Shown here in pieces: positions 1 through 36,254 of a stretch of 36,254 bases of DNA (its first letter is position 1; the number at the start of each line of letters is the position of its first letter). Both the position numbers and the translations under genes were made by a program. The DNA comes from a virus (Duplodnaviria > Heunggongvirae > Uroviricota > Caudoviricetes). Under the pieces are notes generated by a model. It had not been told where the DNA came from. It saw nothing but the letters and a program-made list of their open reading frames with translations, and did no database searches. Where the stretch lies: the IMG/VR virus record IMGVR_UViG_2531839432_000012; one strand, given 5' to 3'.

Positions 1-981
1 CTAACGTCTTGCTTTTAACAATAACCAGATAAACACCGGCGCACCCAACGTTGCGGTGACCACGCCAATAGGCAGCTCTGCGGCAGCTAATGCCAGGCGC
101 GCTACAATATCGGCCAGCAGCAATGCGCTCGCCCCTGCCAGCGCGCAGCCGGGAAGTAATACGCGATGATCGGTTAAACCACACAGCCGGAGAATATGTG
201 GGATCACCAGACCAATAAAGCCGATAGCACCCGCCAGCGCCACACTGACGCCAACCATCCAGCCGGTCGCTGCCACCAGCACATTGCGCCAGAACCACAG
301 GGGTAAACCCAGTTGCCGCGCCGAGATCTCGCCAAGTGCTAACATATTCATCGGCCTGGACTGACAACAGATCCACAACAACACGGGGATCAATGCCAGC
401 ATCAGCCAGCTTTGCCGCCAGTCTACGCCGCCAAAACCGCCCATCATCCAGTACATCAGCTGACGCAAATCAACTGAGGTGGAAAAGTAGATAGCCCACG
501 TCATTAGTGCGCTACAGATAATCCCTAATGCAACGCCAGCCAGCAATAACCGACTGGTCGAAAGATGACGACGGGCGAAACGTAAGAGTATTAAAGTGAT
601 GATAAGCGCGCCAGCAATCGCACACAGCCCTAGCGCCCAGTTGGGGAGTTGCCCTTGCCCAAGTAATACCGCGGCGATAAGCCCCACGCCTGCGCCGTTA
701 GAGACGCCAAGTAGTCCAGGTTCTGCCAGAGGATTTTCAAACAACGCCTGCATTACAGCGCCGGATATAGCCAGCGCCGCACCAACCAGCAATACAGCCA
801 GCGTACGTGGCAGGCGAATTTGCCAGACGAACAGTTCGCCACGAGGAGTAAACCAGTCACCTGGCGAGATCCATTGTTCACCGGCGCAAAGGCTTAAGAG
901 AAGCGCCAGCAGCATCAAAACTGACAGGCATAATAACCAGCGAATATTTTGTCGCTGTTGTTGGCGGGCAAGTGTCAGCAT
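1..981 (-). CDS. btuC: Vitamin B12 ABC transporter permease BtuC (complete, 326 aa; stop codon at 1..3)
   Basis: Full-length ORF; translation is a polytopic membrane permease matching remembered E. coli BtuC essentially end to end ([17 protein letters not shown]...LLKARR). Recognition from memory, not a search. Confidence 0.9.
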
Positions 982-2214: not shown

Positions 2215-3192
2215 TTACATTCCTCCCAAGGGATTAAACCTCACCGCATCCTGCAAGTAATCCGGCGCAAGATGGGCATAAATCATCGTTGTCTGAATCT
2301 TTGCGTGCCCCAGAATTTTCTGGAGCGTCAGAATATTGCCGCCGTTCATCATGAAATGACTGGCGAATGTGTGGCGCAGCGCATGAACAGCCTGGCCGTC
2401 GGGAACATCAGGTGCGACCGTTTTGATGACATCGCGAACCAATGGATAATCCAGCGTCGGAAACACCAGTTTCCCGCCCCGTTTTTTGATCTTTTCAAAC
2501 AGGCTTTCAGAAATAGGAACGGTACGGTTTTTGCTGTTCTTCGTTTTTGAAAAAGTGATTCGACAATGAAGAACACGGCGCTGCTCCAGTGCCACTACCT
2601 CGCCCCATCGCGCCCCGGTCGACAGAAGGATTTCGACAGCCAGCCGTTCATCAGGATTTTCAGCCAGTGCATCCAGCAACTGAACACATTCAGACTTACT
2701 CAGATATCCCATTTCGCGCTCGTTAACCTTCATTCCTTTAAGGCCTTGAACGGGGTTATCGTTAAGAAAATGGCCGGATGAGATGAGTGCGGTAAACATC
2801 GCGCTTAACGCCCCAATCTCTCGATTAATAGTGCTGGGCTGTATCCCCTGCTCTATCCTGGACACACGTAGCTCGGTGAGCATCGTTGTATTAAGTTTAT
2901 GCACGCACGGGTCATCCATTGCCTCACTCAAGCGCAGCAATTTAAGGCGCGTGTTATGCCCTGACTTCATTAGCTGGCCGTGGTATTTCCACCACAAGTC
3001 AATAAGCACTGACAGCGGACGGCGATCAATGGAGTTTCCTTTCCACTCATTGTTATGCTGTTGCGCCAGCACCCACCGCTCATATAAAACTGCATCCGAT
3101 TTCGTTTTAAATTTTTTACGAATGCGTTTGCCTTTACGCCCCTCCGGGCGCATGTCAAGAAGATACCCTCCCGGAATTGATTTTATGCTCAT
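2215..3192 (-). CDS. int: P2-family tyrosine integrase (start taken at MSIKSIPGGY, not the longer ORF start at 3342)
   Basis: Translation has the phage-integrase C-terminal signature (HALRHTFASHFMMNGGNILTLQKILGHAKIQTTMIYAHL) and N-terminal arm-binding region; position next to the repressor as in P2. Confidence 0.85.
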   Translation of the reverse strand: MSIKSIPGGYLLDMRPEGRKGKRIRKKFKTKSDAVLYERWVLAQQHNNEWKGNSIDRRPLSVLIDLWWKYHGQLMKSGHNTRLKLLRLSEAMDDPCVHKLNTTMLTELRVSRIEQGIQPSTINREIGALSAMFTALISSGHFLNDNPVQGLKGMKVNEREMGYLSKSECVQLLDALAENPDERLAVEILLSTGARWGEVVALEQRRVLHCRITFSKTKNSKNRTVPISESLFEKIKKRGGKLVFPTLDYPLVRDVIKTVAPDVPDGQAVHALRHTFASHFMMNGGNILTLQKILGHAKIQTTMIYAHLAPDYLQDAVRFNPLGGM

Positions 3193-3241
3193 TCGTGAAA
3201 CCCCAGCGTTACAAGACCACCATGCCCCCAGCGCTCCATGA

Positions 3242-3553
3242 TTAGCCGGGCTGTGTGCCAGTCTTGCGGGGTTTTTGAGAAGGCGATGTGCTTTTTGGCC
3301 CATCAGGGGAGAGAGACGGACTGATCTGCCCAGCAGCCTCATTTGTTTCGTTACTCATCAACCACGTGGTGTATTTTTTAAAGTTCGGATGCATTGTGAT
3401 TTTCAGTAAAACCTCCGTCCCCACACCTCTAATACCAGTCTCATATTGCTTAACTGTACCAACCGCAATACCTATTGAATCCGCGAACTTTGCCTGGCTA
3501 AGTCCCTCAGATTCTCGAATTGCTTTTAGCTTCTTTGATATCTCTATTGACAT
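3242..3553 (-). CDS. Immunity repressor (P2 C-like), small HTH protein (start taken at MSIEISKKLKAIRESEGLSQ)
   Basis: HTH-like segment LSQAKFADSIGIAVGTVKQYETG; divergent from the early operon as in P2 int-C / cox. Confidence 0.7.
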   Translation of the reverse strand: MSIEISKKLKAIRESEGLSQAKFADSIGIAVGTVKQYETGIRGVGTEVLLKITMHPNFKKYTTWLMSNETNEAAGQISPSLSPDGPKSTSPSQKPRKTGTQPG

Positions 3554-10164: not shown

Positions 10165-11124
10165 ATGAAAATTTGTATCGACGACGGCTCCACCAACATC
10201 AAGCTGGCATGGACTGAGAACGGCGAACGCCGCAACGCCATCAGCCCGAACAGCTTCAAGTCGGAATGGTCTGCGCCGTTCGGTGGCACGCAGCCCGCGA
10301 ACTATATGCTTGATGGCGTGCGCTATGGTTTTGATCCGGTCAGCGATCGCTTTGTCCAGACGACCGACACGCAATACCAATACAGAGATGTGAATGTCAT
10401 TGCCATTCATCACGCGCTGGTCAAATCAGGCATCACGCCACAGGAGGTGGATGTGGTTGTCACCCTGCCACTGAGCGAGTATTTCGACACAAACGCACAG
10501 CCGGACATGGCCAACATCAACCGCAAAAAAGCGAACGTTATGCGCCCGGTGGAGTACCAGAACGGCGAAGCATTCACTATCCGTAACGTGCGGGTTATGC
10601 CTGAATCCATTCCGGCTGGCTTTAAGGCACTGGCTGACATGAGTCCGTTTGAATCCCTGCTGATTGTGGATTTGGGCGGAACCACGCTGGATGTGGCAAA
10701 GGTTCAGGGGCAACTGGCAGGTATCAGCCAGGTGTTTTGCGATCCACACGTAGGCGTTTCTCTGATGGCCGATGCCGTACTGTCGGTGATGGCCACTAAC
10801 GGTATGCGCACCAGTCACCACATCGCCAATACCATTATCGAACATCGCCATGATGAAGCCTGGCTGCGCCAGCACATCCACAATGACGCGCATTACGCCA
10901 GCCTGATGGCGGTTATTCGTGAAAAGGAAGAAACACTGAAACAACGCGTGATCCGCGCGCTGGCGGGTTTTTCGGGTTACGGTCGGGTGATGGTTGTCGG
11001 TGGCGGGGCGGAGATTGTGGCACCCGCTATCCGCGAAGCCTGCGGAGTTAATGCGACTTTCATCGCGGACGGGGTGCCACAGTTTGCTCTGGTTAATGGG
11101 CTGTACGCAATGGACAAGGAGTAA
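10165..11124 (+). CDS. parM: Actin-like segregation ATPase, ParM/StbA family
   Basis: Translation matches remembered plasmid R1 ParM over its length, including IDDGSTNIKL, VMPESIPAG, DLGGTTLD, GGGAE; good RBS. Confidence 0.85.
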   Translation: MKICIDDGSTNIKLAWTENGERRNAISPNSFKSEWSAPFGGTQPANYMLDGVRYGFDPVSDRFVQTTDTQYQYRDVNVIAIHHALVKSGITPQEVDVVVTLPLSEYFDTNAQPDMANINRKKANVMRPVEYQNGEAFTIRNVRVMPESIPAGFKALADMSPFESLLIVDLGGTTLDVAKVQGQLAGISQVFCDPHVGVSLMADAVLSVMATNGMRTSHHIANTIIEHRHDEAWLRQHIHNDAHYASLMAVIREKEETLKQRVIRALAGFSGYGRVMVVGGGAEIVAPAIREACGVNATFIADGVPQFALVNGLYAMDKE

Positions 11125-11128
11125 ACCA

Positions 11129-11440
11129 ATGACGACACCAACCAGACGGATAAGTTTCTATCTGAAGCCCGCCGCCGTCAAGAACGAAGGCGAAGCATGC
11201 GCCTGGCTGGACAGCCTTACACCAGAAGCCCGCAAAAGCGGCCAACGCGTGGCTTTTCTGGCCGGGCTGGCACTTCTGAAAATGAATCCGGCAGAGGCTT
11301 ACCGACTGGCTGCATGGGCTGATGATGAGGCGTTATCAGTGACACAAACCAGGACAGAACGCCCCGCGTCACAGCCAGTATCAACCGCACAGATAACCAG
11401 TCAGATGGCCGGAAATATCCGGGCGTTATTTCCCGAATAA
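11129..11440 (+). CDS. parR: ParR/StbB-like centromere-binding adaptor (start at ATG 11129, not 10994)
   Basis: N-terminal ISFYLKPAAV...LDSLTPEARKSGQRVAFLAGLAL resembles the remembered ParR ribbon-helix-helix N-terminus; RBS AAGGAG 7 nt upstream; immediately downstream of parM. Confidence 0.65.
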   Translation: MTTPTRRISFYLKPAAVKNEGEACAWLDSLTPEARKSGQRVAFLAGLALLKMNPAEAYRLAAWADDEALSVTQTRTERPASQPVSTAQITSQMAGNIRALFPE

Positions 11441-11445
11441 CACAA

Positions 11446-11469
11446 CATCAGGGCGCATCCGCCCTGATG
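11446..11469 (+). terminator. Strong hairpin (10-bp stem CATCAGGGCG / CGCCCTGATG, loop CATC) after parR; weak U-tract
   Basis: Seen in sequence. Confidence 0.35.
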
Positions 11470-11503
11470 ACTTTAACCCGGGAACATAAACAAGGGGGAC
11501 ACA

Positions 11504-11836
11504 ATGCAACACATTGACAGAGAAAAAGCGCAGCGACTGATTGAGCGGATGGAAGCGCTGGCGAAAGAAGAAAATGTCAACATCCAAAAAATAGCTGAAT
11601 GTGGCCAGATAGTTCTTCGTCGTGAAAAAGACCTCAAACAACTGATGTCTGGCGAAACCAGCAAAACATGGACTTCAGGCGAGGAGACGGTTTATTGCAG
11701 TTTCTGCAATAAATCCCAGCACGAAGTCACAAAGGTGATTGCCGGACCGTCTGTTTACATCTGCAATGAGTGCGTGGATTTGTGCAATGAAATTATCAGG
11801 AAAGAAGTGACAGACAAAAAGGAAAAAAACGCATGA
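11504..11836 (+). CDS. ClpX-type C4 zinc-finger domain protein (110 aa), first gene of a five-gene coupled operon
   Basis: C-terminal half [37 protein letters not shown] closely resembles the N-terminal zinc-binding domain of ClpX; RBS GGGGGA upstream. Confidence 0.7.
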
Positions 11837-12168
11837 ACAGAAAACAAAAACAAGAGTTGAAATACTTTTTATGTAAAGAAATTGCCAGGCTTGAAGATGC
11901 AGAATCACAATCATCAGAAATTCCGTTCGGAATGGATATCAACGACGCCCGTATACTCCAGGCATACCGCATAGCTCAGGCTGCACTACAGGCAAAACCG
12001 TCAGATGGACTGGTTAGAGCAGTACGTTTCTATGAACTGGTAAAGCGTGAGAATCCGCCAGCCGAAACCGGAGCATGGAAAGACGCTGTTGACTGGGTGC
12101 TCAAAGAGGCTTGCCATGCTGTAAACATTGGTATCAAGGGAGGGGGATATGGCAACCAACAACCGTAA
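11833..12168 (+). CDS. Hypothetical protein (111 aa)
   Basis: Start overlaps the upstream stop (ATGA). Confidence 0.5.
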
Positions 12169-12343
12169 AGCAAAGATTCTGTTAGTTCGTAGAAACGCTC
12201 CTGGCGTCTGGCAGTGGGTGAGACTCAGCAACCGACGGATGGGGTTGATGAAATATTACGGGATGATGGATTGTGGTTTTTGCAAAAAGCCCAGCGCGGC
12301 GCAAAACCGCTGGAAAAACCACTTGCGCACTAAAGGAGAGTGA
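12149..12343 (+). CDS. Hypothetical basic protein (64 aa; start at ATG 12149 with RBS AGGGAGGGGG)
   Basis: In-frame ATG preceded by a strong RBS; overlaps the end of the previous gene. Confidence 0.45.
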   Translation: MATNNRKAKILLVRRNAPGVWQWVRLSNRRMGLMKYYGMMDCGFCKKPSAAQNRWKNHLRTKGE

Positions 12344-12344
12344 T

Positions 12345-12554
12345 ATGGCTATCGCTGCAAGTTACACCATGCATCTCTATTGTGATTGCCTCCAGTGTAC
12401 AGATGGCAAATATAAGTCGCCAGACTTCGGTGAGTATATAGGTACGTCATGGGCTGGCTGTGCAAAAGAGGCGCGCAAGGATGGCTGGCGAATAAGCAAA
12501 GACAAAACGCGTGCTTTTGCGCCCGGGCATAAAGTTTTGAGGATTAACAAATGA
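12345..12554 (+). CDS. Hypothetical Cys-rich protein (69 aa; CDCLQC motif)
   Basis: ATG with RBS AAGGAGAG; start overlaps the previous stop. Confidence 0.5.
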   Translation: MAIAASYTMHLYCDCLQCTDGKYKSPDFGEYIGTSWAGCAKEARKDGWRISKDKTRAFAPGHKVLRINK

Positions 12555-12811
12555 CCACTTTAACCGACAAAGAACTGATTAAAGAAATCAAAGAGCGCAT
12601 AGGTAGCCTGGACGTTCGAGACAATATTGAACGCCGTGCTTATGAAATTGCACTGGCATCGCTGGAAGCAGAGCCAGTAGCATGGATGCATGTAAATAAC
12701 GGCATCGGAATACCAGCAATAACAAGGAGTAAAGATGTTGCAGAGAGTTGGTTATCAAAAGGCTGGTATGTCCAACCCTTACATCTAGCCCAGCCTGCAT
12801 CAAAGCTATAG
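12551..12811 (+). CDS. Hypothetical protein (86 aa), last gene of the operon
   Basis: Start overlaps the previous stop (ATGA); followed by a terminator. Confidence 0.5.
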   Translation: MTTLTDKELIKEIKERIGSLDVRDNIERRAYEIALASLEAEPVAWMHVNNGIGIPAITRSKDVAESWLSKGWYVQPLHLAQPASKL

Positions 12812-12820
12812 AAATGAGCC

Positions 12821-12850
12821 AAACGCCCTCTTCCAGGGCGTTTATTTCAA
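12821..12850 (+). terminator. Rho-independent terminator (AAACGCCCT-cttcc-AGGGCGTTT + TATTTCA)
   Basis: Seen in sequence directly after the stop at 12811. Confidence 0.55.
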
Positions 12851-13248
12851 TGCACAATAGCGCACAAATTTGCACAATTTTTTTGAACGACTTTTTGCCC
12901 TTCCGGCCCGCGTGGCGGCTGGATCCGTCAAGGATCCGTGCGTGCACAAAAAAACGCGCTTTTTCTACGCGCAGGTGACGGGGGAACAGCCCGCGTTTCA
13001 GGGGGTAAATAGCACTCCCTGAACGATGTCGCAGCGACACAACAGAATGGCTGTATCGCTCACGCTGAGCGTGAAAAAGACGTAAGGGGTTCTGATTTGA
13101 TGGGATGAAAGGTAAGGCCGTCAAAATCGCACTGAGGCGGCGAGAAAATGCAGTCAGCGCGGTGGGATTGTGTAAGAGTCTGGCCGTCGATGATAGCGAT
13201 AAGTCGGAAGACGTCGTGAAATTATCTGATTGATACGGGAGCTGGAGA

Positions 13249-13277
13249 GCCGGGGCATAAATTTTTTATGCCCCGGC
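13249..13277. other. Perfect 29-bp palindrome GCCGGGGCATAAATTTTTTATGCCCCGGC (hairpin or protein-binding site) inside a 565-bp non-coding region
   Basis: Seen in sequence. Confidence 0.4.
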
Positions 13278-13376
13278 GAAGCAGCAGACAAGCGAAGCGC
13301 GTCAGTGATGCAGCACCTTGCCGACCACACTTCATAAGTGCAAAATACGAGCAAAGAAATCAATGGAGGCTGTTTT

Positions 13377-13901
13377 ATGGTCATTAATTACAAGCAGTTA
13401 CGAGAAAAACGAGAGCAGGTAAAGGAAAGTTTTCGCCGCAATGAAGATCTGACCCCGCTTGTACACCTTGCCCAGGGAATTGTTGATGCTTATGAAATCT
13501 CTCTGGAGCTGCCATCACAGACATGGACGGATAGCGATGGTAATCGCCAGCATTACGTTTCATGCGGACTGGAAACAACTGAAGGGGTTCGCAGAATGCC
13601 TTTATCTCAGATTCCTGCCGCTACCCCCAAAGCAAGGGGCGGCAATGATGAGCGAAAACTGATTTTCAGCATTGAGACAGTGGTTGACGACACACCTGGC
13701 GAAGTCGCGTTCGTGCATACTCCTCTTTCGATCGCAATGTATAACGATGAAATACAGGTTCGCGTTAATAATAATATCGTGCCACTTAAAGAAGGTAATT
13801 CACCATACACCACCGTTTGTGAAGCCATCCAATATTACGTTCTCTCTGAAATTGATAATCTCAAGCCTGACGGCACCCAGAAAATGGTTCAACTCTGGTA
13901 A
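13377..13901 (+). CDS. Hypothetical protein (174 aa; start at ATG 13377 with RBS GGAGG)
   Basis: ORF convergent with the portal gene; no recognisable motif. Confidence 0.55.
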   Translation: MVINYKQLREKREQVKESFRRNEDLTPLVHLAQGIVDAYEISLELPSQTWTDSDGNRQHYVSCGLETTEGVRRMPLSQIPAATPKARGGNDERKLIFSIETVVDDTPGEVAFVHTPLSIAMYNDEIQVRVNNNIVPLKEGNSPYTTVCEAIQYYVLSEIDNLKPDGTQKMVQLW

Positions 13902-27819: not shown

Positions 27820-28314
27820 TCAGAACAGCCCTTTAACTGAACTGGCCGCGCTGTTAAGGGATGATGTCACCTTATCTTTGAAGCCGGACAGCATATCGCT
27901 GAACGATGAGGATTGCAGGCGCTCCCGCAAATCCTCATCACAGCGTTCAAGGGTCAGTGAAAATTCTATCTTTTTCGCCTTACCGTAGCGATCAAACTCG
28001 GAGCGGGTCGTATTCGTTCCGGTCAGGACATACATGCCGTAAATCTGCCCGACACCATCAATCAGAGGCCAGGGGCGTCCTGTATATGCCTGCGTGGTCA
28101 GCAACGAAAGCGACACTTCGCCACCTGTAATTTCAGGATAAAGCACACCAGAAAGAACGATGCGATCATCGCCTGCCCCGATATACTGCCAGCTTGCTGA
28201 ACGGTTAACGCGTTCATTTTTCACATGCCGCCAGCTTTTGTTTTGCTGTAACTGCTGATGCGGCAACGTGCGCAGCTCAAAAACAAACATGCCGTAGATC
28301 ATCATCATGGCCAT
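27820..28314 (-). CDS. U: Tail protein U
   Basis: 164-aa ORF following the tape measure gene on the minus strand; size as P2 U. Confidence 0.75.
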   Translation of the reverse strand: MAMMMIYGMFVFELRTLPHQQLQQNKSWRHVKNERVNRSASWQYIGAGDDRIVLSGVLYPEITGGEVSLSLLTTQAYTGRPWPLIDGVGQIYGMYVLTGTNTTRSEFDRYGKAKKIEFSLTLERCDEDLRERLQSSSFSDMLSGFKDKVTSSLNSAASSVKGLF

Positions 28315-28320
28315 GACTCC

Positions 28321-31164
28321 TCAATCTTTATCGTAAAAACTGCCACGTCCGGCACGGTCGCGTCGTTCCAATTCTGCCCTGACCATTTCACCGACCAGTT
28401 TCGCCAGTTCGCGGGGATTCTGTGTAACAACGTTATGCAGATGAACATGAATTTCACCGCCAAATCCGGAGGCAACAGGCTCCCGGTTACGGGAAGTTGC
28501 AGGAGCTGATGCCACTGGCGATCGTATGGCCTCCGCCACCGGGCGGGAGCTGGCCGCAACAACAGGGACCAGCGCCGGAGGCAGCGGAGCCGGAACCACG
28601 GGTGTGATATTAATTGCGGGGGCAGGCTTACTGACCTGCGCAATCTTCCTCCCCTGCCACTCCCCACGAACAGCAAGTGCGCGGGGCAGGTTCTTAAAGA
28701 CAATATCGCCGGGGCCAATGCGTTTTTTCGTCTCATCAACCAGCTTACCTGTGTTATCAGCAATTTTGCTGAGTCTGCGTAGCGTACCGGTATTGCTGTC
28801 TGTGAGCGGTTTGTTGTCTTTGGGCTTATCACCTCCGGTACCATTGCCATTTTCCACAGGCTTCGGCGGATTGATTTTCGCCAGGTCCCCCTGAAGTAAG
28901 GCAACCTTGTCCTGAAGAATGGCCGCACGCTGTGCGTCTTCGATTTTCTTGCGCGCCCTTTCCGCTTCATCCGGAAGGACGCCAAGTTTTTCAAGTATCC
29001 ACGCCAGCGTATCCAGTAGCATTTTTGCAGGTGTCAGAACAAGTTGTAACGCACCGCCAAGAACGTTACCGAATATCTCGCCAGCACTGGTACATTTATC
29101 CAGCGTTTCCTTGCTGGACTCCATCGGTGACAACAGCGATTTAAACCAGTTAAACACCTGGCTGATCCCGCTTCCGATTGCGTCAAAAACAGGACCAAAC
29201 CGTTCAAAGGTTTCGCGCAACGGGGTCAGCCTTTCCATAATCCCGCTGAACACCCCGGCAAAAAATGCCCTGATGGGATCCCAGTATTTCCAGATGAGAA
29301 CGGCAGCTCCGGCAAGCGCAGCCACGATAAGACCGACCGGACTGAACAACGCCCCGATAGCGCCCCCCAGTAACGAAACGGAACCCGTCACCATTCCCCA
29401 TAGTGCTGGCAGGAGTCTGACAGCATTCATTGAACCGGTCAGGAGGGAAAAGCCAAGACGCAGTTTTGCCAGCGGACCAGCAAGCACACCAATAGCCAGC
29501 GACAACGAGCCAACCGTTGCAGTCATTGCCAGCAACGCACCGCCTGCTATCAGTAGCTGGCGCGTCAGTGCCGGATGGGCCTGCGCCAGCGCCGTCACCC
29601 TTGATACCACCCGCGTGAGCCACTGCGTGACAGAACGCAGCGGACCGTCAATCAGATCTGCAATGCGGATGCGCAACCCTTCCCATGCACTGCCGAGTGA
29701 TTTCAGATCGCCGTCAAGGTTGTTGGCCATGACCTTTGCTGTGCGTTCAGCCTCACCGCGCGCGCCTTCAAGTTCTTTTCTCAGTTTAGGTAAGGAACCG
29801 TCACCCGCTGCATCAACGAGCGCCATAAACGATGTGAAAGCCTCTTCTCCGGCAATGTCCTTAAAGAACGATACCCGGTCAACTTCCCCGTATTTGCGGG
29901 TGGCTTTATAAAGGTCGGCCAGCACATCCTCCATCGGGCGCATTTTGCCGTTCGCGTCAGAGACTGCCACACCAAGCTCTTTCAGCGCCTCTGCTGCTGC
30001 CTTTGGCGGTGATGCCAGACGAGCCAGGCTGGCACGCATTGCCGTCCCGGCATCACTCCCTCTGATACCCATATTCGCCAGCACGCCCGCCATCGCTGCG
30101 GCCTGCTCCAGCGATATTCCCAGCTTACCCGCCACCGGACCTGCATATTTCATGGTTTCGCCCAGTGCGCGAAGGTCAGTGTTGGTACGGGTAAATGCTG
30201 CGGTGAGCGTGTCGCCAACCCGGTCCATCTGGTCAGCGGAGAGGCCGAACTGCGTCAGGATATTTGAGCCAATATCTGCCGTCTCGCCAAGGTCCATACC
30301 GCCAGCCGTTGCCATGCTCAGCACGCCCGGAAGCGCAGCCTGAATGGCCTGCGGAGTGAAGCCAGCCATTGCAAGAAATGCCTGCCCACTGGCGGCATCG
30401 CCTGCGGTGAACTGCGTTTCAGAGCCAAGTTTTAACGCCTGCTCACGCAGCGCCTTAAACTGCGGGCTGTTTTTGTCGATTCGCGTCAGTGCCTGAACGC
30501 GGGACATCTCTTTGCCGAACCCGATCGCAGGCTGCAAAAAACGCCCGGCAGCATAGCCGCCAGCCGCTGCCGCACCAATTGCCAGCGCACCACCTGTTTT
30601 CAGTTTTCCCGCGGTTTCCTGCACGCGCGAATACCGCTCACGCGCCCGCGTTACACGCGCAAGCGCCTGCCGTTCGCGTTCAAGCTGGTTGTTGTACTGT
30701 TCGGTGCGTCTGATGGCCTGCTGGATGGTGTTATCGCTGCCTGTCAGGGAAATGCCGTGGCGTTTCAGCTCTCCGCCAAGCTCCCGCATTTTCTGAATTT
30801 CCCGTGTGCGCGATTCATTCAGGCGTTCAAGCCGGGTGCTTAACTGCTGCATCAGCTTTTGTTGTTTTTCGCTGAGCACTGTACCCGTGCGTTGTAACTG
30901 ATTAAGGGCGTTAAGCTGGCGTCGCGCTTTCACGATACCCGCATCCGCTTTACTGACAGCGTCGCGGGCGCGCTCAAATGAACGCGCCTGACGCTCGAGA
31001 TTTTTGATCGCCCCCTGCGTTCGCTGGATGGAGTCACCAAACTGCCCCATCAGGCGGCGGGCGTTTTCGGCAGGGCGGGTCAGCCTGTCAACGGCGCTGA
31101 AAGCGACCCGGATATCAAGAGTCTTCATTGTCTGCATTCCCGCTGCGAAGTGCCGCCCGCTCAC
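28321..31164 (-). CDS. T: Tail tape measure protein (gpT-like); exact start uncertain (alternative ATGs at 31137 and 31128)
   Basis: 947-aa ORF with long coiled-coil and Gly/Ala-rich hydrophobic stretches; follows E/E'. Confidence 0.85.
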   Translation of the reverse strand: MSGRHFAAGMQTMKTLDIRVAFSAVDRLTRPAENARRLMGQFGDSIQRTQGAIKNLERQARSFERARDAVSKADAGIVKARRQLNALNQLQRTGTVLSEKQQKLMQQLSTRLERLNESRTREIQKMRELGGELKRHGISLTGSDNTIQQAIRRTEQYNNQLERERQALARVTRARERYSRVQETAGKLKTGGALAIGAAAAGGYAAGRFLQPAIGFGKEMSRVQALTRIDKNSPQFKALREQALKLGSETQFTAGDAASGQAFLAMAGFTPQAIQAALPGVLSMATAGGMDLGETADIGSNILTQFGLSADQMDRVGDTLTAAFTRTNTDLRALGETMKYAGPVAGKLGISLEQAAAMAGVLANMGIRGSDAGTAMRASLARLASPPKAAAEALKELGVAVSDANGKMRPMEDVLADLYKATRKYGEVDRVSFFKDIAGEEAFTSFMALVDAAGDGSLPKLRKELEGARGEAERTAKVMANNLDGDLKSLGSAWEGLRIRIADLIDGPLRSVTQWLTRVVSRVTALAQAHPALTRQLLIAGGALLAMTATVGSLSLAIGVLAGPLAKLRLGFSLLTGSMNAVRLLPALWGMVTGSVSLLGGAIGALFSPVGLIVAALAGAAVLIWKYWDPIRAFFAGVFSGIMERLTPLRETFERFGPVFDAIGSGISQVFNWFKSLLSPMESSKETLDKCTSAGEIFGNVLGGALQLVLTPAKMLLDTLAWILEKLGVLPDEAERARKKIEDAQRAAILQDKVALLQGDLAKINPPKPVENGNGTGGDKPKDNKPLTDSNTGTLRRLSKIADNTGKLVDETKKRIGPGDIVFKNLPRALAVRGEWQGRKIAQVSKPAPAINITPVVPAPLPPALVPVVAASSRPVAEAIRSPVASAPATSRNREPVASGFGGEIHVHLHNVVTQNPRELAKLVGEMVRAELERRDRAGRGSFYDKD

Positions 31165-31644
31165 GCCAGCTAACCACTTCGCCGGGCGTCATCATGAAGA
31201 TTTCGGCGGGCGACCAGTTAAAAATAACGGCAATATCTGCCACAAAGTCTTCTATGTGCTCAAAGCACACAACCGTGATCAGGCTTCCGTCGCCTGTTCG
31301 TTCTTCCCGCCAGAGTCCGCACCGCTCAAAAAATTTACGGCAACCACACATAACTGAATAAAGTCACGGGATGCCATTTTTTTGATCGTCACTTCATCCA
31401 GTCGCGGTGATGTCACGCGTGACAGCAGCGTAAACATGGATTCCGCTTTCAGATTCAGCACATCAGACAGCGACAAATCTCGCAGAGATCCAGCCTGCTC
31501 AATAGCCCCGGTGATCTCCACATACGTGATTTTTTCGCCGCCTCGCTCAATGGGTTGGGTAAGTTTTACGCCACGCTCACTGGTTTCTTTCACAGTGTCA
31601 GCAACTACCGTGTTTTCGGTATCGATGTTTTTCGTCTCTTTCAT
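31115..31644 (-). CDS. E+E' fusion chaperone produced by programmed -1 ribosomal frameshift at TTTTTTG (plus-strand coordinates 31327..31333)
   Basis: Slippery heptamer seen in the E reading frame (..AAU UUU UUG..); the -1 frame continues into the overlapping ORF 31115..31351, which overlaps the start of T, as in P2. Confidence 0.7.
31279..31644 (-). CDS. E: Tail assembly chaperone E
   Basis: 121-aa ORF between FII and T on the minus strand. Confidence 0.75.
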   Translation of the reverse strand: MKETKNIDTENTVVADTVKETSERGVKLTQPIERGGEKITYVEITGAIEQAGSLRDLSLSDVLNLKAESMFTLLSRVTSPRLDEVTIKKMASRDFIQLCVVAVNFLSGADSGGKNEQATEA

Positions 31645-31698
31645 CAGGAAACTCCTTTCAGTCAGAGGCGACGCACTGCGCCGCCTGCATATTACTTA

Positions 31699-32211
31699 TC
31701 AGCCAAGCCCAAGCGCGGAACGGATGCGATCGGGCACAATGTCCTTGCCGTCCTTCCGGTAAATGAAGTTCAGCAGGTCAATCTCCCACAACGGACGATC
31801 GTTAACACTCAGCTTGTAGTAGGTGTTTTTAATGGCGTAAGTGTGTGATGTGGCTTCGCCCTGTTTGGCTTCCCCCATATCAATTTCCGTCACACGTCCG
31901 CGCATTTCGACTTCATACAGGTCGCTTTCTGCATCGGTGTAGTATTCACCCGCAAAACGCAGCAGCGTGCCGTCAATCGTGCCGCCATACTTAAGGAACA
32001 GCTCACGAACTGCGCCCCCCATGACAAAGCTCGCATCAAGCGCGGAGTCGTCCAGACCGAGATCAATACTTACCGCCCCCATCATGCCACCACCCCGGTA
32101 GCTGTCGGTTTTGCGCGTCAGTTTGGGCAGAGTGACGGACGTCCCCTTACCCACTTCGTTTTCACCATCCACAAACAGCGTAAAAAAGCGAAGATGTTTT
32201 GGCACAGCCAT
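31699..32211 (-). CDS. FII: Tail tube protein FII
   Basis: 170-aa ORF directly downstream of the sheath gene. Confidence 0.85.
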   Translation of the reverse strand: MAVPKHLRFFTLFVDGENEVGKGTSVTLPKLTRKTDSYRGGGMMGAVSIDLGLDDSALDASFVMGGAVRELFLKYGGTIDGTLLRFAGEYYTDAESDLYEVEMRGRVTEIDMGEAKQGEATSHTYAIKNTYYKLSVNDRPLWEIDLLNFIYRKDGKDIVPDRIRSALGLG

Positions 32212-33395
32212 CAGGCACCTCCCAGCACCGCAAATGCGGGTTCAAAGTATTCATCAGTAAACGTCTGGTAAAGCTCCATGTCTTCCAGTGGCGGAACGGG
32301 CGTATATTTGTAGCGAATACGCACACGCCCCTGACGTAAATCCGTGGTGCTGTTATCCACCACGTCATACCAGCACTCCGCGCCAATCAGTTTCCCGGCA
32401 GTCACCAGTGAATCCAGTTTTGCCCTGATGGCACTGATAACATCCTTCACGTTCGCAGGCGTCAGTGGACTGTCGATGGTTTCAAACTGCGCTTCCGCAA
32501 TTGAATCAGCCAGCACCTGTGCGGTTCGGGTATACACCTCAAAAATGTAGGCGTTCGTTTCCGGTGTGCGGTTGCCCCAGAAGCGGAACCCGTTGCGACG
32601 AATAATGGTCGTGATTTCTTTGTTGTTGAGGCTGTTGGCATCGCTGTCTTCGGCCTGCAACGACCAGAACACATGCCTCGACATCCCCAGCACATTTTTA
32701 ACCGGAACGTTGGACAGCGATTTGTGCCAGCCCTGCTCATGGTCAATGTACGCACGAAGGCCGCACGCATAAGCAGGCGCGGGGAACGTTTCGTTTTCGC
32801 CACTTTTCGGGTTGTAGGCGATGAAGTCCGGCCATAAGAGCATCACTTCACGTTCGTTGAATTTCTGGCGGTAGGTAATCGCTTCAGCCATCGTGTTACA
32901 GCCGTGACATGAGGCATACACAAATGCGCGCAGTTTACCCGCAATCACGCACAGGGATTTTGTCACCGCCTCCGTGTCCAGCTCCGGCGCGGCCAGAATA
33001 CGCGGACGGTATCCGATGCTTTCATCCTGCTCTGCAACAAGCAGCGCATACATCCCCGTATAGCTGCCGTCATCCTCAGAACCACCGATAACCAGTTGAT
33101 CCTGCGTCTTTTCGTCTTCTTCTTTGTGTTCAGCCACACGAACGACGATCACCTTTGTGCTCACCTGGTCTGCGATGGCCTTAAGCGCACGATAAAGCGT
33201 CCCCGTTGTTCCGCATTTTCCCAGCACGTCATTGACGCGGGTCAGCAGTGTGGGCTTGTTCAGCTGGAACAGCTTCGCGTCCGCATCATCCGCCGTTGCC
33301 ACGATACCGATAACGCTGGAATCAACATCGTTAATCGCTGTTACCAGGTCGGTATTTTCCGTAACACGGGCACCATGAAAACGAGTTTCACTCAT
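32211..33395 (-). CDS. FI: Contractile tail sheath protein FI
   Basis: 394-aa ORF; size and position; RBS AAGGGG. Confidence 0.85.
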   Translation of the reverse strand: MSETRFHGARVTENTDLVTAINDVDSSVIGIVATADDADAKLFQLNKPTLLTRVNDVLGKCGTTGTLYRALKAIADQVSTKVIVVRVAEHKEEDEKTQDQLVIGGSEDDGSYTGMYALLVAEQDESIGYRPRILAAPELDTEAVTKSLCVIAGKLRAFVYASCHGCNTMAEAITYRQKFNEREVMLLWPDFIAYNPKSGENETFPAPAYACGLRAYIDHEQGWHKSLSNVPVKNVLGMSRHVFWSLQAEDSDANSLNNKEITTIIRRNGFRFWGNRTPETNAYIFEVYTRTAQVLADSIAEAQFETIDSPLTPANVKDVISAIRAKLDSLVTAGKLIGAECWYDVVDNSTTDLRQGRVRIRYKYTPVPPLEDMELYQTFTDEYFEPAFAVLGGA

Positions 33396-33552: not shown

Positions 33553-34653
33553 ATGACCGACACCACCATGCAATTGCTCAGTCAGGGCACAGAACCCGTG
33601 AAAATGCCGGATTTTGATATTCTCGCCGAGGGTAAAACGCTGTCCGGCGTGGCAGAACGCCTGATGAGCCTGTCACTGACCGACAACCGGGGATTTGAGG
33701 CGGACCAGCTCACCATCACGCTGGATGATGCCGATGGCCAGTTGCAGCTACCGCCACGGGGCGCGCGTCTGACGGTTCTCATTGGCTGGAAAGGGGAACC
33801 GCTGACAGAAAAAGGCACTTACATTGTTGATGAAATCGCTCACGAAGGACCGCCGGACAGGCTGACTGTTTCAGCCAGAAGCGCAGATTTTCGGGATGAA
33901 TTTAACGTTAAACGTGAGGTGTCCTGGCATGATGTGACCGTTGAGCGTGTGGTATCCGCCATCGCTCATCGGTATGGTCTGAAACCGCAAATCAGCGAAA
34001 TGCTGATGGATATCGAAATCGACCACGCCGACCAGACCGAAGAAAGCGATATGTCCTTCCTTACGCGCATGGCGGAAATGCTGGGCGCAATCACCACGGT
34101 AAAAAGCGGCAATCTGTTATTCATCATGCCCGGTGGTGGCGTGAACACACAGGGCCAGCCGTTGCCCTCGTTCGCCATTACACGCAGCAGCGGCGATCGC
34201 CATCAGTTCCGCATTGCTGACCGCGAGGCGTATACGGGTGTACGCGCCTACTGGCTTGATCTTAATTACGGGAAAAAGAAAAAAGTCAGCGTGAAACGCC
34301 GCAAACCGAAAAAAGAGAAAAGCAGCAGCCGTGAAGGTGACTATATGGAAGGTGCGGAAGGCAACGTGTTTGTGTTACGCAAAACTTATCAGAACGAGCA
34401 GGCAGCAAGACGCGCAGCGGCGGCAAAGTGGCAGCAGCTACAACGCGGAGCCGCATCATTTTCCATCACGCTGGCACGTGGACGAGCAGAGCTCTACCCC
34501 GAAATGCATGGCACGGTAACAGGATTTAAAAGCGAGATTGATAATCAGGACTGGATCATTGCAAAAGCCGAGCACACCATTGATAACAGTGGCTTTACCA
34601 CGCAGCTTGAGCTTGAAGCCAAAATCCCGGAATGGATAGCAGAAACAGAGTAA
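33553..34653 (+). CDS. D: Tail protein D (late control D family); start at MTDTTMQLL
   Basis: 366-aa in-frame ATG inside the longer ORF 33421..34653; position before ogr as in P2. Confidence 0.8.
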   Translation: MTDTTMQLLSQGTEPVKMPDFDILAEGKTLSGVAERLMSLSLTDNRGFEADQLTITLDDADGQLQLPPRGARLTVLIGWKGEPLTEKGTYIVDEIAHEGPPDRLTVSARSADFRDEFNVKREVSWHDVTVERVVSAIAHRYGLKPQISEMLMDIEIDHADQTEESDMSFLTRMAEMLGAITTVKSGNLLFIMPGGGVNTQGQPLPSFAITRSSGDRHQFRIADREAYTGVRAYWLDLNYGKKKKVSVKRRKPKKEKSSSREGDYMEGAEGNVFVLRKTYQNEQAARRAAAAKWQQLQRGAASFSITLARGRAELYPEMHGTVTGFKSEIDNQDWIIAKAEHTIDNSGFTTQLELEAKIPEWIAETE

Positions 34654-34847
34654 ACAACTTAGATGCATTAGCCCTGACATTTGCTAACGCGCTTACAGCA
34701 AGAATCATAACCAATCTGACAGCCTACCCGGTGTCAAAATCAGAAGAGCCTTACATTAGAATATGTTAATTTGTAGCAAACAAATTTACACACAAATGAT
34801 TACTGCTGAAATAGCCCCCATAAATGCCATGTCAAAGGATCCATGTT

Positions 34848-35513
34848 ATGAATATGCAAATTTTTATCGCACCAGCAGCCACAGTTGCTGCAGTCTGCCT
34901 TGCTGCATATTTTGCTTTACGAAATGAACGTAAAAAGAAAGCACTTGAGATTAGAACAACTCAACTAGATCGAATATCAGAGCTAGTAAACCGAGCATCT
35001 ACCAATTTGATGCAATATACAGGTACTCTTGCCTCTATACTGGAAGCGCACGCCAAAGATAATTATCTACCGAACAAAAAATTTGACATTAATGTAATTA
35101 GCAAATGGAAAGATTGCCTCGATGAGAGTGAGGTCTGGGCGATTGATATACAGCAACTAAGAACATGTCAGCACAGTCTGGAGTTTCATCGTGAAAAAGA
35201 ATGGGCTGAATGGAAAAAAATAATTCCACCATTACTTGATAAAATTAACCAATTTTTTCTCATATCTAAGCTAGGGCAACCTGTTACGTTTATAAATGGC
35301 CAAAACAAAACAGCTGATGAACTACTTGTTTTCTCAAGATATTTGAGAAAACAAACAGCAGAAATTGAATCAGTACGTCAGCTGTTACTTTCTCAAATGA
35401 GAGAGGAATTCATCGAGTTAACTAGCTTTGAACCTGTCACAATGTTTAGCTTATTTAAATCAATAAAGAAAAATGTCATGCAATTTTTCTGTATCAGTGC
35501 TCTTAAAAATTGA
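34848..35513 (+). CDS. Low-GC hypothetical protein with an N-terminal transmembrane helix and ~190-aa soluble domain; candidate accessory gene inserted between D and ogr
   Basis: ORF with RBS AAAGGA 8 nt upstream of ATG 34848; visibly AT-rich compared with flanking genes; predicted TM segment IFIAPAATVAAVCLAAYFAL; followed by a terminator. Confidence 0.6.
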   Translation: MNMQIFIAPAATVAAVCLAAYFALRNERKKKALEIRTTQLDRISELVNRASTNLMQYTGTLASILEAHAKDNYLPNKKFDINVISKWKDCLDESEVWAIDIQQLRTCQHSLEFHREKEWAEWKKIIPPLLDKINQFFLISKLGQPVTFINGQNKTADELLVFSRYLRKQTAEIESVRQLLLSQMREEFIELTSFEPVTMFSLFKSIKKNVMQFFCISALKN

Positions 35514-35528
35514 CGCTCTGTTGCAAGC

Positions 35529-35560
35529 AACCCCAGTGTTAAACTGGGGTTATTCTTGCT
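35529..35560 (+). terminator. Rho-independent terminator (AACCCCAGT-gttaa-ACTGGGGTT + ATTCTTGCT)
   Basis: Seen in sequence after the stop at 35513. Confidence 0.5.
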
Positions 35561-35662
35561 AAGAGACCTTTCTACGGCATCAGTAAACAAAACGAACTAT
35601 CAGTTGGAGTCTGAGCAAGTTCAGCCTAAACTAGCGACAGCACTACGTTAAGGGAGGTCGCT

Positions 35663-35923
35663 ATGTTCCGTTGTCCGCTTTGTGGCGCATCTGCCCGTAT
35701 CCGCACCAGTCGTCCGGAAAATGATTCAAACACCGTGCGGCAAAAGTATTACCAGTGTAACAACCTGGAATGCGGCGTATGCTTCTCAACACTGGAAGCT
35801 TTCCATAAATTCACATCGAAACACGCCTCCGGCATCCACTCTTCAGAAGGTATCCCGTGGCATGAGCTGCCAGCTTCACACAGGGGAAACAATCAGATGA
35901 GTTTGCCTTTACCTCAGAATTAA
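35663..35923 (+). CDS. ogr: Late gene transcription activator, Ogr/Delta zinc-finger family
   Basis: N-terminus MFRCPLCGASARIRTSR...YYQCNNLECGVCF matches the Ogr Cys4 pattern (CPLC...C..C); RBS AAGGGAGG; position after D. Confidence 0.8.
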   Translation: MFRCPLCGASARIRTSRPENDSNTVRQKYYQCNNLECGVCFSTLEAFHKFTSKHASGIHSSEGIPWHELPASHRGNNQMSLPLPQN

Positions 35924-35983
35924 CAGGCAGAATTGCCGGAGTAACAAAAAAACGATAGATTACGCGCGGGTGCCTTTCGGCTG

Positions 35984-36196
35984 ATGGTCGGAGGGAATAC
36001 CCGAAGGCCAGATGTGGAAAGGCCCCGGAAAACATCTCTGTTTAACCGAGGCCCTAACCGCATTACCTTGACAAGTGAAAGGTTAGCGCCTCTCCGGAAA
36101 AGGAGCAAGTGCTATGTCGCAAAAATCGCTTACGGCCATCACGTTCTGCGTGACGGCAATCCTCATCATCTGGATGTTGCACGGTTCGCTGTGTGA
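35984..36196 (+). CDS. Possible mok-like overlapping reading frame of the hok locus
   Basis: 70-aa ORF overlapping most of the hok ORF in another frame, as in hok/mok/sok loci; inference only. Confidence 0.3.
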   Translation: MVGGNTRRPDVERPRKTSLFNRGPNRITLTSERLAPLRKRSKCYVAKIAYGHHVLRDGNPHHLDVARFAV

Positions 36197-36254
36197 AATA
36201 CGGATGAGCTTCTGGGGAGCGGAGTTTGCGGCGTTCTTACAGTGTAAGCAGTAA
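36114..36254 (+). CDS. hok: Hok/Gef-family type I toxin (46 aa, MSQKSLTAITFCVTAILIIWMLHGSLCEIRMSFWGAEFAAFLQCKQ), complete with stop at the window end
   Basis: Hand-translated small ORF with RBS AAAGGAG; single TM helix followed by the conserved SLCEIR and AAF motifs of Hok-family toxins (closest to HokA from memory). Confidence 0.7.
   Translation: MSQKSLTAITFCVTAILIIWMLHGSLCEIRMSFWGAEFAAFLQCKQ

Follow-up and report, generated by a model that had tools for sequence, protein, structure and literature searches.

The window analysed here, a 36,254-nucleotide (nt) stretch recorded in IMG/VR as IMGVR_UViG_2531839432_000012, is a P88-like prophage (genus Xuanwuvirus, family Peduoviridae) of Escherichia coli together with a little host DNA, and the subject of this report is an AT-rich insertion that separates its genes D and ogr and carries a single gene, referred to below as the cargo gene. 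The features of this D-ogr slot are collected in Table 1. The insertion can firmly be described as accessory, swappable and horizontally mobile cargo, under purifying selection, that encodes an inner-membrane protein. What is new is the uncharacterised gene; it belongs to a known kind, the hotspot cargo of P2-family prophages.

Table 1. Features of the D-ogr slot and its flanking genes in the window (aa, amino acids; ORF, open reading frame)
Feature	Position	Strand	Description
Gene D	33553-34653	+	Tail/baseplate hub, left conserved flank of the slot; PF05954 Phage_GPD, E = 1.9e-17
Left inverted repeat of the slot	34654-34750	+	Outer 7-mer ACTTAGA (34657-34663), then terminus TGCATTAGCCCTGAC
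Core motif CTGACAGCCTACCCGGTGTCAAAATCAGAA	34716-34745	+	Within the left inverted repeat
Leader of the cargo gene	34751-34847	+	Conserved block with palindrome AATTTGT (34768-34774)-N5-ACAAATT (34780-34786); only weak -10-like hexamers
Cargo gene	34848-35513	+	221 aa, 25.7 kDa, pI 9.0; sole credible ORF in the insertion
Terminator-like hairpin	35529-35551	+	AACCCCAGTGTTAAACTGGGGTT then ATTCTTGC; 9 pairs, 5 of them G-C; weak T tract
Right inverted repeat of the slot	35565-35631	-	Degenerate in the window, clear in sibling cargos
Candidate ogr promoter in the right repeat	35604-35609 and 35627-35632		TTGGAG, 17 nt, TAAACT
Gene ogr	35663-35923	+	Late-gene activator, right conserved flank of the slot; PF04606 Ogr_Delta, E = 5e-14

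The insertion and its distribution

The extent of the insertion is given by comparison with phage P88, which is matched by BLASTN at window positions 34400-34663 and 35632-35950 and has 1 nt in place of the 968 bp between them; since the P88 matches stop and resume at 34663 and 35632, the insertion is a clean segment, 34664-35631. The final 264 nt of D are 95% identical to P88, in which only 45 nt separate D from ogr. An earlier reading of the window (the original prediction) had placed an AT-rich insertion of about 0.9 kb between D and ogr, which the comparison with P88 confirms, although its right end, set at 35560, fell about 70 bp short. The foreign composition that it had reported also stands: the GC content of the insertion is 0.374 against 0.525 for the whole window, and the lowest-GC 968-bp frame of the entire window begins at 34651.

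Presence and absence of the segment vary among related phages and prophages. Across 34400-35950 the window is 93.5% identical over the full length to Escherichia phage 520873, in which the segment is present, whereas P88, Chuche, Shae_phiSM, PhiR44_2 and P884B11 match this region at its two ends only and lack the segment. A joined query of the D end and ogr found the flanks in 1243 of 5426 complete E. coli genomes; the junction is uninterrupted in 728 of these 1243, the slot is interrupted or rearranged in about 500 of the 5426, and 58 E. coli genomes carry the insertion of the window, 50 of them at 99% identity or more. The original prediction had allowed that homologues might turn out to be core late genes of P2-family phages. 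No homologue was found in a late-operon position, and the gene is missing from most P88-like prophages; P88 and four further sequenced relatives lack it, as do no fewer than 728 of the prophage junctions in E. coli.

The cargo gene and its expression signals

The single gene with an N-terminal transmembrane (TM) helix that had been read from the insertion is borne out, as one ORF with a TM segment at residues 5-23. Its coding sequence (CDS) has a GC content of 0.356, and of 0.279 at third codon positions, compared to 0.535 and 0.583 for D, and a Shine-Dalgarno sequence, AAGGA (34835-34839), lies 8 nt upstream of the ATG. In enteropathogenic E. coli (EPEC) E2348/69 the locus is 99.7% identical in DNA, and RefSeq annotates there a matching 666-nt ORF as a hypothetical protein, WP_001057121.1; a literature search for WP_001057121 found nothing. 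A two-gene system was considered and ruled out, the downstream genes varying by context and the window holding no second ORF beside the cargo gene.

The gene had also been credited with a promoter and a terminator of its own. The terminator has a plausible counterpart in the terminator-like hairpin downstream of the gene (Table 1), which is common to the variant in E. coli 113303, the copies in Kluyvera having a 15-bp hairpin of their own instead. The promoter fared less well, as a consensus scan gave no sigma-70 site upstream of the ORF. The leader block is 77–78% conserved with the Kluyvera copies in two unrelated contexts, where about 90-140 nt of upstream DNA are conserved alongside the gene, and this conserved block hints at a regulatory role. 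An Rfam scan of the insertion returned only a chance miRNA-like match.

The lack of a consensus promoter of its own would suit a gene that is read through from the late D transcript and serves as a lytic-cycle accessory, acting at induction only, in lysis timing or other membrane events; the cargo gene is co-oriented with the late gene D and directly downstream of it, and its product has a single TM helix, like holin- or antiholin-type regulators. We consider this very improbable for a gene that is absent from most P88-like prophages, the uninterrupted junctions including phage isolates such as P88, whose family also occurs in non-phage contexts (plasmids, an integrative and conjugative element (ICE) and an island), and whose place in the slot is interchangeable with restriction and Thoeris genes.

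The cargo family is under purifying selection, with ratios of non-synonymous to synonymous change (dN/dS) of 0.24-0.33 at dS of up to 0.67 (an E. coli copy at 86% amino acid identity and a Kluyvera georgiana copy at 73%). Some copies are disrupted by insertion sequences (IS). An IS3-family element interrupts the ORF of strain 165 near codon 92 (contig L043, 2983-4211), the point at which the match to the segment also breaks off in two other strains. Strains AR_0128 and AR_0118 have an intact ORF but carry IS1A in its leader, about 45 nt before the gene (contig L042, 829-1526). In phage 520873 (NC_049344; 657-2323 of the extracted region) D and the cargo gene are both split into several short CDSs by single-base indels, which are probably assembly or sequencing errors rather than true pseudogenes because D is fragmented too. 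The IS-bearing copies and the frameshifted copy of 520873 are what could be said for the ORF being a non-functional passenger or decaying remnant, with the mobile cassette the sole feature of interest. Such a reading is scarcely credible in the face of the dN/dS values, of a length kept at 214-235 aa with invariant residues that persist down to 19% identity, of a confident AlphaFold model, and of the sequencing errors suggested by the fragmented D of 520873.

The protein: membrane anchor, fold and family

Residues 5-23 have a 19-residue Kyte-Doolittle mean of 2.11, every other segment of the protein reaching 0.93 at most. This TM helix is followed by a juxtamembrane LRNExxKKxLE motif, a four-helix bundle containing H114 and W122, and a C-terminal helix, 199-220. 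A single-sequence AlphaFold model was poor (predicted local distance difference test, pLDDT, 60), and a model based on the family alignment was used in its place; in this AlphaFold2 model (pLDDT 86.8, predicted template modelling score 0.72) the protein is all-helical, with a long helix, 4-71, that includes the TM segment, and further helices at 81-93, 101-136, 156-192 and 199-220.

Across the family the N-terminus before the TM segment is neutral or acidic (0 to -2), and the net charge of the 15 residues after it ranges from 0 to +4, with a positive value in 15 of 17 members. Membrane localisation is predicted from the hydrophobic stretch 5-23 together with this charge asymmetry, both kept in the family, and by the positive-inside rule the bundle would therefore be cytoplasmic, with an N-out/C-in topology. 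The original prediction had left open whether the domain of about 190 aa is cytoplasmic or periplasmic; the rule makes the first of these the more likely.

The family is small. A word-seeded search of 5.8 billion proteins returned seven clusters only, all from E. coli or Kluyvera, and an exhaustive profile search of 1.84 billion representatives returned 23 family proteins, 17 of them below 1e-10. Twelve full-length members, of 214-235 aa, were retrieved and aligned. H114 and W122 are invariant in the alignment, P9, A20, L24, K30, K31 and F113 are near-invariant, and at an 80% conservation threshold the list extends to P9, T12, V16, L18, A20, L24, R25, N26, E27, K30, K31, L33 and E34 in the N-terminal part and to Y57, L111, F113, H114, W122, F136 and F137 in the later part. 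Residues 9, 12, 16, 20 and 24 of the TM region share one helical face, and this conserved face suggests a specific helix–helix contact rather than a passive anchor.

Relatives of the gene and their neighbourhoods

The family occurs on mobile elements only, viz. prophages, plasmids, an ICE and defence islands. In Kluyvera an identical CDS is found in two contexts: a lambdoid prophage, in which it sits between the replication genes and the NinG/RusA/Q genes, and an integrase island, where the genes upstream match a retron RT_VI, PDC-S35 (TIR) and a Mokosh-like helicase. Common to both contexts is a unit of exactly 966 bp at 99.4% identity (contig L004, 7882-8847), which consists of the gene with 119 bp before it and 181 bp after it, the 15-bp hairpin among the latter, and is bounded by the motif that also borders the D-ogr slot; judged by its sequence, this unit is a self-contained one-gene cassette.

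Just upstream of the cassette in the Kluyvera lambdoid prophage (L004, 6077-7652) there is a gene for a 408-aa pore-forming Colicin-domain protein, with an opposed 100-aa ORF with a signal-peptide-like N-terminus beside it, and the two would form a prophage-borne bacteriocin module. An immunity-type link between the cargo gene and this colicin was dropped, as the shared cassette excludes both the colicin gene and its neighbour.

Some more distant members are carried as cargo by a pKLC102-like ICE, close to a SEFIR/TIR gene. Klebsiella aerogenes and Citrobacter have others on Rep3 plasmids, of which the Klebsiella one also bears an Old/AriA/GajA-like ATPase. Another, the only locus to come from a profile scan of genome contigs, is on a plasmid-like contig of Pantoea with ParA/ParB. 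One island member is flanked by DUF4238 and DUF4145 genes, and a DUF4238 protein has been found to give strong resistance to T7 (PMC9122126).

The distant homologues beside Rep3 or ParA/ParB on the Klebsiella, Citrobacter and Pantoea plasmids, and the one inside the pKLC102-like ICE backbone, raise the alternative that the protein acts in exclusion of other elements, hindering competing plasmids or ICEs or stabilising its own element; an anchor with a conserved TM face would suit interference with DNA-transfer machinery. Since no type IV secretion or entry-exclusion genes are adjacent in any locus examined, and the closest homologues are in prophages and in the retron/Mokosh island, this function appears improbable.

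Boundary inverted repeats and the P2 Z/fun region

Cargo-bearing D-ogr slots share non-coding DNA that has no counterpart in P88, about 95 nt after the D stop codon and about 35-40 nt before ogr, the latter being conserved in all eight cargo types described below with the consensus TCAGTTGGAGTCTGAGCTAGTACAACTTAGAATAGCG. The left and right flanks are inverted repeats of each other, some 70-95 nt in length (about 95 nt on the left; shorter, degenerate and about 70 nt on the right), and the reverse complement of the right flank aligns with the left repeat as well as with the right inverted repeat of P2-EC46. A BLASTN search of GenBank phages matched the boundary stretch to AJ512676-AJ512685 ('proviral Z-region', P2-EC30 to P2-EC67), which we take to be the sequences of the 2004 Z-region study by Nilsson, Karlsson and Haggard-Ljungquist. 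Two of these records, AJ512679 and AJ512680, annotate the stretch as a 'left inverted repeat' paired with a 'right inverted repeat', with which the flanks in the window align, and the cargo ORFs of the Z region are labelled 'putative lysogenic conversion protein' in GenBank. Judged by its homologous boundary repeats, the D-ogr slot is a relocated counterpart of the Z/fun hotspot.

The repeats contain a core motif, CTGACAGYCCRCTYNGTGYCAGRAGCRGAC, from which the copy at 34716-34745 differs by 6 substitutions and the one that marks the left edge of the Kluyvera cassette by 1. Scanning IMG/VR for the exact pattern gave 31 contigs. In those with classical P2 synteny the motif follows the tail-fibre genes, with an inverted copy about 200 bp upstream of FI, and the pair, lying between H and FI, brackets 0.8-5.8 kb of cargo, sometimes with extra internal copies. 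The cargo gene of the window was not found in the 31 Z-region-type contigs. The boundary motif was also considered as an Ogr-binding site, an invertase crossover site, an integron attC site or a REP element, and these readings were dropped because it is not known to resemble any of them in sequence.

Just upstream of ogr, the right edge of most cargo variants reads TTGGAG-N17-TAGAAT; in the window this edge is 35597-35632 and its second hexamer is TAAACT. The right repeat may thus carry a candidate ogr promoter that keeps ogr expressed despite the cargo terminator, and this conserved flank may be the reason why terminator-bearing insertions are tolerated upstream of ogr.

The surrounding tail genes are arranged unlike those of P2. 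The minus strand carries the sheath-tube-E-T-U block (27820-33395); compared with classical P2, this U-T-E-FII-FI tail block stands in the reverse orientation, and the sheath gene and D are transcribed away from each other. A single inversion moving a Z-type slot from G-FI to D-ogr was considered and rejected, as none reproduces the observed gene order.

The D-ogr slot as a hypervariable cargo site

Eight other filled D-ogr junctions were sampled and hold seven other cargos, so that eight cargo types are seen when that of the window is counted. The seven are a GmrSD_N-domain protein, a DUF3800 protein, a SEC-C-motif protein, a 340-aa protein with a weak RiboL-PSP HEPN match that is below Pfam's threshold, a ParA-like ATPase, a 1039-aa protein without a domain and, in a degraded prophage, a pair of Thoeris ThsA (E = 3e-88) and a TIR protein. 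The D-ogr junction is accordingly a hypervariable cargo slot in P88-like prophages.

The canonical hotspots described for P2 are A-Q and Z/fun, and Z/fun is enriched for defence systems (PMC9519451). A preprint (10.1101/2024.10.15.618418) already notes a third hotspot in P2, situated between CI and a tail protein, which may include the D-ogr region. The original prediction had held that this slot is not a commonly described P2 hotspot, which is correct in so far as it is not among the two usually mined; it is a hypervariable slot rather than an odd one-off. As most of its sampled cargo is uncharacterised, it would be worth mining alongside A-Q and Z/fun.

These observations also bear on whether the cargo gene might be a lysogenic-conversion or fitness gene unrelated to defence, for instance a factor in membrane stress, the envelope or host interaction. 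Cargo without a defence role, including cytolethal distending toxin and tail-fibre genes, is reported from P2 hotspots (preprint 10.1101/2024.10.15.618418), homologous Z-region cargos are labelled only as putative lysogenic conversion proteins, no defence model matches the cargo protein, and the gene is present in pathogens such as EPEC E2348/69. Several homologues, by contrast, lie directly among recognised defence genes, sibling prophages hold GmrSD and Thoeris in the D-ogr slot, and the family is restricted to mobile elements and extremely rare, which is typical of conflict genes. On this evidence we regard a role unrelated to defence as unlikely.

How the unit may move

The termini of the repeats, 5'-TGTATTAGCTC...GAGCTAATACA-3', lie 53 nt outside the core (41 nt in some P2-type copies). 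Repeats with these ends flank cargo in P2 Z/fun, in the D-ogr slot and in the Kluyvera lambdoid prophage (L004, 7814-10419), and they also occur in contigs (among L044-L074) without a match to the genes of this phage. In one contig (L053, 214-4366) the unit stands between the two copies of a perfect 7-bp direct repeat, GCTAACT, within an apparent terminator hairpin, and at D-ogr the sequence A(A/C)TTAGA borders filled sites left and right and occurs a single time in empty P88. As a lead, this pattern can be read as the trace of a transposition that duplicated 7 bp, with later exchange of cargo via the repeats. No clear target duplication was seen at the P2 Z region or at the Kluyvera ends, and no transposase or recombinase was identified for the repeat-bounded units.

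A bolder proposal, which we hold tentatively and consider doubtful as a whole, is that the cargo protein founds a new single-protein family of membrane-acting anti-phage systems and that the repeat-bounded units are transposon-like cassettes mobilised in trans. If the units are indeed mobilised in this way, defence genes would shuttle among P2-like prophages (at Z/fun and D-ogr), lambdoid prophages and islands, which would explain the turnover of the hotspots mechanistically; the shared boundary repeats and the one clean 7-bp duplication may point to active mobilisation of defence cargo. For us the boundary-repeat result is the more intriguing lead.

A probable role in protection

The best explanation overall, to which we give about as much belief as doubt, is that the 968-bp segment is the current cargo of a repeat-bounded D-ogr slot and that its inner-membrane protein is probably protective. 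Read from the sequence and its contexts, the cargo gene probably serves in lysogenic conversion on its own, shielding the lysogen, and with it the prophage, from other phages or mobile elements. A defence role is suggested by the other cargos of the slot, the neighbours of the homologues, the restriction of the family to mobile elements and the enrichment of Z/fun for defence systems.

In the mechanism that we propose, the cytoplasmic four-helix bundle of about 170-190 residues, with its invariant Phe-His...Trp patch, would sense an infection cue, upon which the conserved TM face would self-associate or engage a membrane partner. Oligomerisation through the TM segment could then compromise membrane integrity, leading to abortive infection, or the TM face could engage an inner-membrane partner of genome entry and block entry, giving superinfection exclusion.

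Several points weigh against a protective function. The protein has no significant match in Pfam, NCBIfam, PADLOC v2.0.0 or PHROGs, its best E-value in PADLOC-DB v2.0.0 being 0.023, and 18 aligned family members gave sub-threshold matches only against Pfam, NCBIfam and PADLOC, none of them common to more than two. Among PDB sequences the best profile match was a Cog7 fragment at E = 0.015, and Foldseek found nothing at E <= 0.001 among BFVD structures; profile and structure searches of the 221-aa protein have thus matched no known family or defence model. The modelled fold appears generic and is silent on specific function, and the positive-inside rule is the sole basis of the N-out/C-in topology. 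No consensus sigma-70 site lies upstream of the ORF, so that expression of the gene in the lysogen is inferred for a gene without a consensus promoter. The copies interrupted by IS3 or with IS1 in the leader indicate that the gene is dispensable. The slot is not purely defensive, as most of its other cargos are uncharacterised and Thoeris is the only one among them with a strong PADLOC match, and the Rep and ParA neighbours on plasmids would fit a role in maintenance or competition equally well.

The original prediction had seen in the gene the profile of an abortive-infection or superinfection-exclusion gene. The presence of GmrSD and Thoeris in the same slot and the defence genes beside the homologues favour that view; the failure of any known defence model to match does not. 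If the protein is protective, a compact 25-kDa single-gene membrane system without a recognisable domain would join the defence repertoire of E. coli, and it would be easily testable because the gene is present in reference strains such as EPEC E2348/69.

Other features of the prophage

At its left end the window holds a host FecCD-family gene (1-981, minus strand), and the integrase lies at 2215-3342. The interval between them, the att-int interval, which is listed as a minor P2 defence hotspot in a 2026 paper, contains two low-GC ORFs (about 0.41) on the minus strand (1174-2212), one of 184 aa, which is coiled-coil-like with weak matches to LmuB and the ZorA region, and one of 166 aa. In EPEC E2348/69 the corresponding end of the prophage abuts ihfA-pheT.

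The canonical A-Q hotspot of this prophage (10165-13901) encodes a ParM-like actin (319 aa, E = 1e-81), a ClpX-type zinc-finger protein (110 aa) and three ORFs without domains, and its ORFs gave zero matches to PADLOC. At the other prophage end, 35968-36254, there is a hok/sok-type toxin-antitoxin module, comprising a sok RNA match (48.4 bits, E = 2.8e-9, under the gathering score of 59) and a Hok/Gef-like ORF that starts at 36114, related records annotating Hok/Gef or MokW-like proteins.

Comparison with known systems

In fold, the cargo protein resembles the four-helix-bundle sensors of chemoreceptors and histidine kinases, i.e. the ligand-binding domains of Tar/Tsr, NarX/NarQ and PilJ, and the resemblance ends there: sequence identity is 5-11% with no match to Pfam 4HB_MCP, the sensor bundles are periplasmic and lie between two TM helices whereas the cargo protein has one TM helix and a bundle predicted to be cytoplasmic, and it has no signalling output domain. 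The likeness is probably generic to helical bundles, because designed bundles score highest.

Prophage proteins that act at the membrane in exclusion or abortive infection include T4 Imm, P22 SieA, HK97 gp15 and lambda RexB. The cargo protein is like them a small, prophage-borne inner-membrane protein encoded by stand-alone accessory cargo, and its conserved TM segment suggests that it, too, acts within the membrane; it differs in having no similarity in PADLOC or PHROGs, and in its large domain, which is predicted to be cytoplasmic.

Phage morons are autonomous insertions of promoter, gene and terminator between conserved phage genes, as described by Hendrix and colleagues. The insertion shares with them its presence or absence between genes that are adjacent in relatives, its deviant composition, its single gene and its terminator-like hairpin. 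Where morons have their own promoter, the scan of the window found no consensus sigma-70 site, and a conserved block with a palindrome travels with the gene. The long inverted repeats and the apparent 7-bp target duplication, neither of which is required of classical morons, also set the insertion apart.

The P2 Z region differs in position: it is found between the tail-fibre genes (H/G) and the sheath gene FI, whereas the slot of the window separates D from ogr and belongs to a phage in which the FI-FII-E-T-U block runs in the opposite direction to that of P2. In other respects the two are alike: both are bounded by homologous repeats, with the core CTGACAGYCCRCTYNGTGYCAGRAGCRGAC about 53 nt inside the TGTATTAGCTC terminus, and both hold highly variable, low-GC cargo, often of one or two genes with their own signals.

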